Assembly (NCBI GenBank): GCA_964364455.1
Contig: CAYIMR010000003.1
Span: forward strand, 23-64,022
Direction: 5' to 3'
DNA: 64,000 bases
From: an uncultured Planctomycetales bacterium
GTDB lineage: Bacteria; Omnitrophota; Gorgyraeia; Zapsychrales; Zapsychraceae
Shown: positions 61,176-63,715 of the stretch, piece by piece
Layout: every line of letters begins with the position of its first letter
How positions within the stretch are numbered: position 1 is the stretch's first letter
Notes under the pieces: generated by a model
The model's database searches: none
Seen by the model: the letters and a program-made list of their open reading frames with translations, nothing else
What the model was told of the DNA's origin: nothing
Made by a program: the position numbers and the translations under genes

Positions 61176-61977
61176 TTTCCTGACGACAATCCTCGCTCAT
61201 AAACACCGTATTCTCGCGGCCCAAAAGGACGCTTACGTGACCCTGCGTAAAAAAGCCGACGCGGCCCCGAAGGACACAGCGGGGTTGTTTAAAAAGAATA
61301 TTTCCAGACCAGGGCAGATCAATTTGATCGCCGAGATCAAGAAAGCGTCGCCCTCCGCCGGAGTCATCCGCAAGGATTTTAACGTTGAGGCAATCGCCAA
61401 AATTTACGCCGACCATAAAGCCGCGGCCATTTCGGTCCTGACGGAAGACAAATATTTTCTGGGGAAACCTGAAGATATCCTGACCGTTACCAAGCGCGTC
61501 AATCTGCCGGTCCTTACCAAGGATTTCATTATCAGCGACGGCCAAATTTACGAAGCGAAGGCCAACGGCGCGGCGGCGGTCTTGCTGATCGTCGCTATTC
61601 TGGACGACAGCGAGCTAGGTGGTTTGCTGAACATCGCGCGCGAGTTCGGCCTGGATTGCCTGGTTGAAGTGCACGATGAAAAAGAGCTCGACCGCGCCAT
61701 GAAAGCCGGCGCGGAGATTATCGGTGTCAATAACCGTGATCTAAAGACCCTTGATGTGAACTTTAGAACCAGTGAGCGCCTGATCCCCCGGATTCCCGGA
61801 GATAAGGTGATCGTGGCTGAGAGCGGCCTGCGGACCCACGACGATATCCGCCGCGTGAAGGATCTGGGAGCGCACGCGGTTTTGATCGGGGAAACGTTCA
61901 TGAGGGCGAAGAATATTGGCGGAAAAATCGACGAAGTAATGGAGGATAGTTGTAGGCTTACGACTAAAAGATTATGA
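61168..61977 (+). CDS. trpC: Indole-3-glycerol phosphate synthase
   Basis: ...LIAEIKKASPSAGVIR...AISVLTEDKYFLG...LTKDFII...EVHDEKEL...IGVNNRDLKT... Apparent GTG start. Confidence 0.92.
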   Translation: MADFLTTILAHKHRILAAQKDAYVTLRKKADAAPKDTAGLFKKNISRPGQINLIAEIKKASPSAGVIRKDFNVEAIAKIYADHKAAAISVLTEDKYFLGKPEDILTVTKRVNLPVLTKDFIISDGQIYEAKANGAAAVLLIVAILDDSELGGLLNIAREFGLDCLVEVHDEKELDRAMKAGAEIIGVNNRDLKTLDVNFRTSERLIPRIPGDKVIVAESGLRTHDDIRRVKDLGAHAVLIGETFMRAKNIGGKIDEVMEDSCRLTTKRL

Positions 61978-62591
61978 CTCGAGTCAAGATCTGCGGTATC
62001 ACAAATCTCAACGACGCTCAAATGGCGGTTAATGCCGGCGCCTCTGCCCTTGGATTTATCTTCGACAAAAAAAGTCCGCGCTACGTTTCTCCCAGCAAGG
62101 TCAGGCCGATCGTTGAGGCCCTGCCGCCTTTTGTGACGCCGGTGGGCGTCTTTGTCAATTGCAGCGAGCACGCGGTGCGGGATATCTGCCGCCTGGCGCG
62201 CGTTGCGACCGTCCAGTTCCACGGCGAAGAGTCCCCCGGGTACTGCAAACGCTTCAATCATTTCAAGATCATCAAGGCCTTTCGCGTGAGTGATGTTTTT
62301 GATTTCAAGTCGGTCCTCCGATATAAGGTCGACGCCTATTTGTTCGATACGTTTCAGGAAGAAACCCCCGGAGGCACAGGTAAGACCTTTAACTGGGATC
62401 TGTTAAAGAATTACAAATTCGACAAGCCTGTTATCCTCTCCGGAGGCCTTAACCCCGAAAACGTGCGCCAGGCCGTTGAAACCGTCCGGCCGTACGCGGT
62501 GGACGTCTCCAGCGGTGTCGAAAAATCCCCGGGGGTCAAAAGCTATCAGTTGATTCAGGCATTTTGCGGTGCAATTCCACCGGTTCGTTAA
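61974..62591 (+). CDS. trpF: Phosphoribosylanthranilate isomerase
   Basis: VKICGITNLNDAQMAVNAGASALGFIF...SPRYV...QFHGEES...LSGGLNPENV. Confidence 0.9.
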   Translation: MTRVKICGITNLNDAQMAVNAGASALGFIFDKKSPRYVSPSKVRPIVEALPPFVTPVGVFVNCSEHAVRDICRLARVATVQFHGEESPGYCKRFNHFKIIKAFRVSDVFDFKSVLRYKVDAYLFDTFQEETPGGTGKTFNWDLLKNYKFDKPVILSGGLNPENVRQAVETVRPYAVDVSSGVEKSPGVKSYQLIQAFCGAIPPVR

Positions 62592-62650
62592 GCGACCATC
62601 CGCTTTTTGGGAAATCCGCCCTTCAAAACACAAAATTTTATTTTCGCGCC

Positions 62651-62680
62651 TTGTCAGCCGTTGGAAAATGTGTTATATTT
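62651..62680 (+). promoter_or_regulatory. Sigma70-like promoter preceding the structured RNA candidate
   Basis: TTGTCA (62651-62656), a 17-nt spacer, then TATATT (62674-62679). Confidence 0.5.
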
Positions 62681-62686
62681 GCAACG

Positions 62687-62886
62687 AGCCGATAAAGGTA
62701 AACCCGCCGAAAGGCTCCCTTTGGGGAGGGGAAACCCGGGGACACAAAACCACAGGCCTACATTATCCAATACCTAAAAGGCCCTTCGGAAACGTCGGGG
62801 CAGTTCAAGACCATTGGATTGGTTGACGATAATATGGCGGCTGGGTTGCCGAAGACAAAGAGGGGTTAAACCCCACTTTATCGGCT
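62687..62886 (+). ncRNA. Candidate structured small RNA of about 200 nt, class not recognised (a 6S-like RNA is one possibility)
   Basis: The 5' AGCCGATAAAG (62687-62697) pairs with the 3' CTTTATCGGCT (62876-62886). Internal helices include CTCCC/GGGAG (62715-28), GGGG-TTAAA-CCCC (62862-74) and ATCCAAT/ATTGGAT (62764-70/62813-19). No convincing ORF. An upstream promoter and downstream strong hairpins bound it. Confidence 0.45.
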
Positions 62887-62921
62887 TATTTTTTATCCGC
62901 AGAGCGGATAAAAAATAAGCC
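62883..62921 (+). terminator. 18-bp perfect hairpin (A/T-tract-containing, potentially bidirectional)
   Basis: GGCTTATTTTTTATCCGC-AGA-GCGGATAAAAAATAAGCC. It is followed by a second hairpin, CCTCCCAT...ATGGGAGG (62920-62968). Confidence 0.6.
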
Positions 62922-63004
62922 TCCCATGCTTTGATTTATTTTGCTTTCCCAAAAAAATCAATGGGAGGCGACAAACTTCAGCGCTCAAATTAACCTACCA
63001 ACGT

Positions 63005-63715
63005 ATGAACCTCATCCTCCTTTCACCTGACGACTTTATCAAACCCAAAACCCGCGTACGTCTGGATGACCGCCGTTACCTGCACATCCGGGATATCCAC
63101 CGCGCCAAAGAGGGCGATGAACTTTCCGTGGGCCTCATCGGCGGCCGCATCGGAACGGGAAAGATCGCTTCTCTGACCGGCGAAGCCATCGAAATGGATA
63201 TATCGTTGAACCTGCAGCCTCCGTCGCCGCTTCCGGTTACGCTCATTTTGGCCCTGCCGCGGCCCAATATTTTAAAACGCGCCCTGCAGGCGGCCAGCGC
63301 GATGGGCGTCAAAACAATTTTTCTCATCCACTCGAACCGGGCGGAAAAAAGTTTTTGGCTAAGCCCGGTGCTGAAGCCCGAAAAAATTCAGGAACAGCTG
63401 ATCTTGGGGTTGGAACAGGGGAAGGATACCGTTCTGCCCGATATTCAGTTACGGAAAAGTTTTAAACCATTTGTCGAGGATGAATTGCCCGAACTGATCC
63501 AGGGCACACGGGCGCTGATCGCCCACCCACAGGCGAGCGAGGAGTGCCCGCGCGACATTCGCCAGCCGGTCACCCTGATGATCGGCCCCGAGGGAGGATT
63601 TATTCCCTACGAGATCGAAAAGTTGACGGCACTGGGATTCACTCCGGTACATCTGGGCGATCGTATTTTGCGCGTCGACACCGCCGTCCCGGCCTTGCTG
63701 GCGAGATTGTTTTAA
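63005..63715 (+). CDS. rsmE: 16S rRNA (uracil1498-N3)-methyltransferase
   Basis: ...HIRDIHRAKEGDELSVGLIGG... and ...LILALPRPNILKRALQAASAMGVKTIFLI...LMIGPEGGF...E...LGDRILRVDTA. Confidence 0.85.
   Translation: MNLILLSPDDFIKPKTRVRLDDRRYLHIRDIHRAKEGDELSVGLIGGRIGTGKIASLTGEAIEMDISLNLQPPSPLPVTLILALPRPNILKRALQAASAMGVKTIFLIHSNRAEKSFWLSPVLKPEKIQEQLILGLEQGKDTVLPDIQLRKSFKPFVEDELPELIQGTRALIAHPQASEECPRDIRQPVTLMIGPEGGFIPYEIEKLTALGFTPVHLGDRILRVDTAVPALLARLF

Follow-up and report, generated by a model that had tools for sequence, protein, structure and literature searches.

The 64,000-nucleotide stretch of an Omnitrophota genome that we analysed (the window) carries, close to its end, the genes trpF and rsmE in the same orientation, separated by a spacer of 413 bp (from the trpF end at 62591 to the rsmE start at 63005). 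A first-pass annotation, made from the letters alone, had pointed to this spacer as the possible seat of a stable small RNA, and the elements that it described are indeed present at the coordinates given. A promoter-like sequence, TTGTCA-17-TATATT, lies at 62651-62679; 10 of 12 positions are matched and a TG stands ahead of the -10 box. Downstream of it, AGCCGATAAAG (62687-62697) and CTTTATCGGCT (62876-62886) are perfectly complementary, and this end-to-end pairing is found in the minimum-energy fold. The two GNRA-like loops are GCC-GAAA-GGC at 62706-62715 and GGG-GAAA-CCC at 62728-62737. The 18-bp perfect hairpin, with an AGA loop, occupies 62883-62921, and a further hairpin occupies 62920-62968, where pairing is kept within the genus via compensatory changes (CAU:AUG becomes CGC:GCG in the homologous locus L008). 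When 62680-62975 is folded as one piece, its energy is -114.2 kcal/mol against -82.1 +/- 5.4 kcal/mol for shuffled sequences (z = -6.0; 0 of 200 shuffles are as good), and the minimum-energy fold holds the end-to-end helix together with both hairpins. The features and their coordinates are collected in the table.

Table. Features of the trpF-rsmE interval (positions are those of the window)
Feature	Position	Strand	Remark
trpF	61974..62591	+	upstream neighbour of the RNA
-35 box TTGTCA	62651..62656	+	
-10 box TATATT with TG extension	62674..62679	+	
Predicted primary transcript, about 205-210 nt	62687..62896	+	inferred from promoter spacing, fold and U-run
5' arm AGCCGAUAAAG	62687..62697	+	P1 5' strand and J1/2 strand, including the G20 equivalent G62697
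c-di-GMP-I aptamer (Rfam RF01051)	62687..62853	+	50.6 bits; gathering score 35; E = 6e-7 over the whole window
P2 arm	62703..62740	+	docking GAAA loop 62731-62734; species-specific 22-nt insertion 62706-62727
A47 equivalent	62746	+	alignment to model; relatives also have A
P3 arm with tetraloop-receptor motif CCUA...UAUGG	62748..62847	+	62-nt distal extension 62767-62828
C92 equivalent	62849	+	alignment to RF01051 and RF03167
P4 hairpin AAAG-(GGGGU UAA ACCCC)-A-CUUU	62857..62879	+	alternative CUUU partner; constrained fold
3' arm CUUUAUCGGCU	62876..62886	+	partner of the 5' arm
U-run UAUUUUUUAU	62887..62896	+	immediately 3' of the closing helix; probable intrinsic termination site
18-bp hairpin	62883..62921	+	GGCU common to the 3' arm; U-run buried in the stem
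Second hairpin	62920..62968	+	no U-run after it on the + strand; compensatory changes in L008
rsmE	63005..63715	+	downstream neighbour; possible read-through target in this genus

There is no terminator-like hairpin between the trpF stop and the promoter of the RNA (62592-62650), hence transcripts of the trp operon may enter the RNA and stop at its terminator. An open frame of 85 codons (62569-62826) also leads from trpF into the spacer, and one could imagine that a small protein is encoded there. However, the frame starts inside trpF, relatives differ in this region by the 22-nt indel and by other indels that are not multiples of three, and they also show paired compensatory substitutions, as is typical of RNA helices. 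In our opinion the chance of a protein product is negligible, and we agree with the first-pass annotation that the spacer contains no credible open reading frame.

We disagree with the same annotation regarding the kind of RNA. It had found no match to riboswitch consensus sequences and suggested 6S RNA or an unclassified RNA. An Rfam scan of the whole window returned the c-di-GMP-I family (RF01051) as the sole family above threshold, with 50.6 bits against a curated cut-off of 35. All 87 model positions are aligned, and the sequence exceeds the model by an insert of 30 nt in the loop of P2 and one of 62 nt in that of P3; scores of 61-78 bits are reached by relatives that lack the P2 insert. 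Besides c-di-GMP-I, an E-value scan of 62500-63100 gave only chance-level matches to other known RNAs. The RNA is thus not unclassified, since it belongs to RF01051. Its length of about 200 nt, its paired ends and its own promoter would all suit a 6S-like RNA, but no 6S model appears at E <= 10, the interior is a two-arm GEMM-I aptamer in which both arms covary and not a rod with a central bubble, and the c-di-GMP-I model is above threshold with all pocket nucleotides kept. We therefore regard a 6S-like RNA, or an unclassified family, as very improbable. What survives of the proposed stable small RNA is a conserved and structured molecule with its own promoter and paired ends, represented in RNA libraries; the likeness to 6S does not survive.

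In c-di-GMP-I aptamers the adenine of A47 intercalates between the two ligand bases and C92 pairs with one ligand guanine, while an A20 instead of G20 would indicate the c-AMP-GMP variant. According to the alignment to the models, this ligand-contact signature is kept in the RNA described here: G62697 corresponds to G20, A62746 to A47 and C62849 to C92. The segments AAAGG, CAAA and GCC are invariant or nearly so among 80 homologs, and in the 80-row alignment both the GAAA loop and the CCUA...UAUGG receptor motif are invariant. It seems nearly certain to us that the spacer RNA is a c-di-GMP-I (GEMM-I) aptamer, for which ligand binding is predicted from the sequence, and in genome annotation the trpF-rsmE spacer should be labelled as a c-di-GMP-I riboswitch and not as an unknown RNA. 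Given 10 GGDEF and 9 PilZ matches in the genome, which thus encodes domains for both turnover and reception of c-di-GMP, signalling by this messenger is present in the organism.

The c-di-GMP-I-GGC variant (RF03167) was considered and rejected because of the standard A at position 47. In some relatives RF03167 slightly outscores RF01051 (61-65 bits, cut-off 59; loci L003, L005, L026 and L038). Nevertheless, the standard A is kept where the RF03167 model has G (GACACAAAG here versus GACGCGAA in the model), so the RNAs of these relatives have the standard signature and do not belong to the GGC variant. As RF03167 scores higher than RF01051 on RNAs that keep A47, automated annotation would mislabel them as the variant class.

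Comparison with Vc2 of Vibrio cholerae, the type example of RF01051, makes both the likeness and the peculiarities clear. The two share the two-arm aptamer, in which the P2 GAAA loop docks on the CCUA/UAUGG receptor of P3, the equivalents of G20, A47 and C92, and a score above the gathering threshold. In contrast to standard GEMM-I RNAs, the P1 adjacent to the pocket is only about 2 bp long here, and a helix of 11-12 bp joins the first bases of the transcript, including J1/2, to a distal 3' arm with a U-run behind it. C92 and this 3' arm are separated by a P4 hairpin, P3 is extended by 62 nt, and P2 is enlarged in this species by a 22-nt insert. Finally, the RNA has its own promoter, and most relatives have two terminators after it and no consistent downstream gene.

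Two side observations belong here. The 22-nt insertion in P2 (62706-62727) adds two small hairpins, one of which has a second GAAA loop; this species has the insertion, L003 and L004 of the same genus lack it, and thus it looks like a recent expansion of an aptamer arm. The same genome also contains a second c-di-GMP-I riboswitch (G000:C38:2038-2108, minus strand; locus L001, about 1440-1590; 43 bits). This copy has a conventional adjacent P1 (CUGUU/AACAG), an enlarged P3, a promoter-like site and a canonical terminator, after which come two more hairpins and an ORF starting MNRHTLKRGFLSLAPVMGAC.

The P2 and P3 helices are supported by covariation, which the first-pass annotation had proposed to test. 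In the alignment of 80 sequences (A1), 98.9% of consensus-structure cells are paired versus 92.0% in shuffles, and both sides have changed in 14 of 34 pairs. The covariation score of 0.308 compares with 0.158 in shuffled alignments (0 of 500 reach the observed value) and with 0.035-0.086 when partners are slid. Changes on both sides affect all six P2 pairs and all five distal P3 pairs, and the base of P3 covaries as well. The P3 extension is widespread but variable: MAFFT and RNAalifold found no common structure for its interior across the phylum, only its base and the first distal stem being supported.

The closing helix has to be judged differently. Six of its 11 pairs are invariant, three show one-side changes that still pair, one has changed on both sides, and one contains a single unpaired cell; being nearly invariant, this helix cannot be proven by covariation. 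The homolog set was also partly chosen by closing-helix motifs. The 5' arm is unchanged in 80 of 80 rows of A1, but these rows were selected by the 5'-arm motif and are not independent evidence on this point. The sequence common to the homologs is GCCGAUAAAGG paired to CCUUUAUCGGC. The helix is part of the unconstrained minimum-energy fold in 103 of 105 homologs, and a 3' arm with at most two mismatches is found in 127 of 133 loci, the chance rate being estimated by us at about 15%.

The same homologs tell where the transcript probably begins and ends. Of 105 unique homologs, 88 have a -10-like hexamer 12-15 nt ahead of GCCGA and 84 have TTG at -35 to -38 relative to the 5' arm. With promoter and 5' arm so regularly spaced, transcription should begin with the first bases of the closing helix. 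After the 3' arm, at least six T within 9 nt are present in 70 of the 105 homologs, and a canonical second terminator (hairpin and T-run) follows within 140 nt in 78. Among the 23 homologs with a weak U-run, 21-22 possess the second terminator and the helix is still kept, which argues that termination is not the only reason for the conservation of the closing helix. In the family at large, own promoter, terminator and the lack of a conserved downstream ORF, the marks of a merRNA-type RNA, are found together, while in the genus of the window the second terminator is missing. We consider it probable, with a good margin for error, that the RNA is a self-contained transcription unit in the family at large.

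Based on these data, the following mechanism can be proposed. Transcription would start at about 62687, exactly where an 11-bp helix begins in which the first 11 nt of the RNA pair with the 11 nt just ahead of the U-run. Helix and U-run most likely end the transcript at about 62890-62896, which would give an RNA of about 205-210 nt with clamped ends. The 5' strand of this clamp also supplies J1/2 of the ligand pocket (AUAAAG, with the equivalent of G20); as the same strand serves both, the fully closed form could not bind c-di-GMP. Ligand binding would need the upper 4-6 pairs to be open, and the freed CUUU may then pair with AAAG in the tail of the aptamer, forming P4. In constrained folds the closed state has an energy of -75.3 kcal/mol, and freeing both AUAAAG and G-C92 brings it to -68.3 kcal/mol, at a cost of 7.0 kcal/mol (the median opening cost across homologs is 7.1 kcal/mol). 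In this opened state a 5-bp P1 (AGCCG:CGGCU) is formed and CUUU:AAAG makes P4; forcing the canonical 2-bp P1 gives -62.1 kcal/mol. With J1/2 freed, CUUU re-pairs locally in 69 of 105 homologs, and a short helix beside the U-run persists in 87 of 105. An affinity of about 1 nM for c-di-GMP is quoted for the c-di-GMP-I class (PMC3627812). Such an affinity is worth more than the 7 kcal/mol opening cost, hence the ligand would pay for the opening of the clamp. The best reading of these folds, in our opinion, is that the clamp is a ligand-gated helix in an RNA whose termination would be largely constitutive, the exchange of helices being what the models suggest. The same models do not choose between an ON and an OFF switch, as a P1 of 5-7 bp and a local tail hairpin could both adjoin the U-run.

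Almost without exception, riboswitches are regarded as leaders of the next gene. The most serious alternative is a conventional one: the RNA could act in cis as a riboswitch that controls transcription termination ahead of rsmE and of the DAHP synthase gene behind it. The terminator stem would then be formed by the 3' arm either with the 5' arm or with the 3' tail of the aptamer (GCCGA...UCGGC). In an ON version c-di-GMP would lock both partner strands in the aptamer and thereby permit read-through, and in an OFF version it would stabilise the short P1 beside the U-run. Indeed, the tail can form with the 3' arm a local hairpin of -16.7 kcal/mol directly ahead of the U-run, and its GCCGA duplicates the 5' arm, so that a classic partner swap is possible. 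However, the persistence of a helix at the U-run when J1/2 is freed suggests that termination may be independent of the ligand, and the second terminator present in most homologs would stop read-through anyway.

The neighbouring genes bear on the same question. At the 105 homolog loci trpF stands upstream in 26, spread over several families. Downstream, the commonest genes encode a Zn-ribbon protein (19), a GH1 glycosidase (14), RsmE (7) and a Cys-rich small protein (6), followed by CorA (4), an M20 peptidase (3), a patatin-cNMP protein (3) and others. The GH1 gene has its own promoter after the terminator. The most frequent downstream gene (19 of 105 loci) encodes a conserved protein of about 103 amino acids, for example L010:1081-1389 (minus strand), which has a zinc-ribbon-like CxxC...CxxC motif and matches no Pfam family above threshold. 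The same strand is used by 77 of 93 downstream ORFs, as a cis-acting element would favour, and 16 of 93 are convergent. Against the cis-acting explanation, the RNA has rsmE behind it in close relatives alone (L002-L009), while unrelated or convergent neighbours are found elsewhere. Neighbours so varied are not what one expects of a leader that belongs to a regulon. Typical c-di-GMP targets, moreover, do not include rsmE or DAHP synthase. All considered, we find a dedicated cis-acting role unlikely, although it is the alternative that deserves most attention.

Given the terminators after the RNA and its varied neighbours, the unit cannot control a downstream gene across the family, and for that reason we read it as a stand-alone c-di-GMP-binding RNA. 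Such an RNA would act either as a buffer (sponge) of c-di-GMP or as a sensor in trans, as has been proposed for merRNA. The explanation as a whole, a GEMM-I aptamer placed in a self-contained unit and producing a stand-alone RNA, has in our judgement a probability of roughly 0.55. Whether the stand-alone role, by sponge or in trans, would be the main function is a narrower claim which we see as evenly balanced.

The genus of the window requires a reservation. Here two conserved hairpins stand in place of the canonical second terminator, and both the 18-bp stem and the second hairpin show compensatory changes among genomes of the genus. We considered whether these hairpins belong to a repeat family and rejected it, as they are unique in the genome. 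In two relatives (L003:101-304 and L004:1365-1561, both minus strand) an extra module of about 65 nt lies between the riboswitch and rsmE; it contains a hairpin pair resembling 62883-62968 of the window, as if the hairpin module had been duplicated. For the cis-acting explanation it is favourable that rsmE is the next gene in the same orientation, that no promoter-like site was found for it between the RNA and its start, that in L009 its ATG is only 11 nt after the 3' arm, and that the DAHP synthase gene directly follows in L020. With no promoter-like site and with the ATG of L009 so close to the arm, rsmE may depend on read-through. Thus in this genus the RNA, while stand-alone in our preferred reading, may in addition set how much transcription continues into rsmE and the DAHP synthase gene.

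RNA from the environment was examined in three aquifer metatranscriptome runs (X1, X2 and X3) as contigs, which give neither levels nor true ends. In X1 there is a contig of 168 nt with a depth of 23.7 that is identical to 62697-62852, its last 12 letters being Illumina adapter; X3 holds the copy of a relative at a depth of 67.4. These depths are confined to the aptamer, and contig depth is no measure of expression. The only match in X2 is a distant homolog of depth 2 that carries promoter sequence, and this run is uninformative. No cover of 62000-62683, on the side of trpF, or of 62855-63633, on the side of P4, the 3' arm and rsmE, was seen in the three runs, which, coming from contigs, is no proof of absence; beyond 63633 there is only an X3 contig of low depth (2.5) with six differences. 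The silent flanks argue against carry-over of DNA and fit an RNA that is far more abundant than the mRNAs of its neighbours. The lack of cover over rsmE in runs where the aptamer is present also speaks against the cis-acting explanation, weakly, as these are contigs. The first-pass annotation had proposed metatranscriptome coverage as a way to define the ends of the RNA: the contigs recovered the aptamer core. The X1 contig stops at 62852, ahead of P4 and the 3' arm, in disagreement with the 3' end that we predict. Its junction with the adapter falls right after GCCGA, where the aptamer core ends on its 3' side, and maps no RNA end; it could be a common site of processing or fragmentation, or an artefact.

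The distribution of the RNA extends well beyond the genus. BLAST of the spacer, the search for homologous spacers that had been recommended earlier, found the RNA conserved in 51 of 61 related genomes and in 12 of 14 families of the order. An exact-pattern scan with one genome per species gave 103 loci, nearly all labelled Candidatus Omnitrophota. Of 401 genomes sampled from the phylum (Candidatus Omnitrophota), 76 contain the 15-mer GCCGATAAAGGTAAA, almost always in a single copy, while the reversed control pattern occurs in 0 of 401. The 15-mer is concentrated in the order of the window (15 of 18 genomes in family f1) and in parts of its class; the genomes sampled from the other classes nearly all lack it. 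An RF01051 family search of the window's own genome found the C38 copy and missed the copy in the window, so counts from such searches are unreliable, and BLAST and the 15-mer were used instead. In the literature searched for riboswitches of Omnitrophota, we found no description of this RNA.

Omnitrophota are small and possibly dependent on other cells, like Bdellovibrio. To our knowledge, merRNA is the only c-di-GMP aptamer proposed to work as a free RNA; it is limited to one genus and its role was never confirmed. The merRNA of Bdellovibrio bacteriovorus, in our view the closest precedent, is an RNA with a c-di-GMP-I aptamer that was proposed to be a store or sponge of c-di-GMP (Karunker et al. 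2013, PMC3627812). As in our case, the aptamer resides in a non-coding RNA with no conserved downstream ORF (PMC3627812). On the other hand, merRNA is 445 nt long, is reported only from Bdellovibrio, and its massive attack-phase-specific expression was measured (PMC3627812), whereas the Omnitrophota RNA is about 205 nt long, occurs across an order and in parts of a class, and its expression is known from metatranscriptome contigs only; the comparison is made by the shared aptamer. A second useful precedent is EutX/Rli55, an sRNA that contains an AdoCbl riboswitch and has its own promoter, the ligand setting the length of a trans-acting RNA (PMC5821096). There too the last helix of the aptamer doubles as a terminator, and the riboswitch belongs to a non-coding RNA transcribed from its own promoter (PMC5821096). 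However, EutX uses another aptamer class and has a defined 3' extension which sequesters EutV (PMC5821096), while in most relatives of the window the stretch from the first to the second terminator is short and variable, being conserved only within this genus.

We tentatively extend the stand-alone reading to the lineage, with the odds in our opinion somewhat against it: a large Omnitrophota lineage would possess one abundant stand-alone c-di-GMP-binding RNA per genome, with a clamp-gated pocket, which would buffer or relay the signal in trans and not control a neighbouring gene. A single-copy unit from promoter to terminator, maintained across an order of uncultured, very small bacteria and represented in RNA from the environment, would offer a second and much broader test of the idea put forward for merRNA. 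If true, this would be a widespread counterpart of the merRNA of a single genus, and it would point to RNA as a significant receptor of c-di-GMP in genomes of 1.5-2.5 Mb with about ten GGDEF genes.
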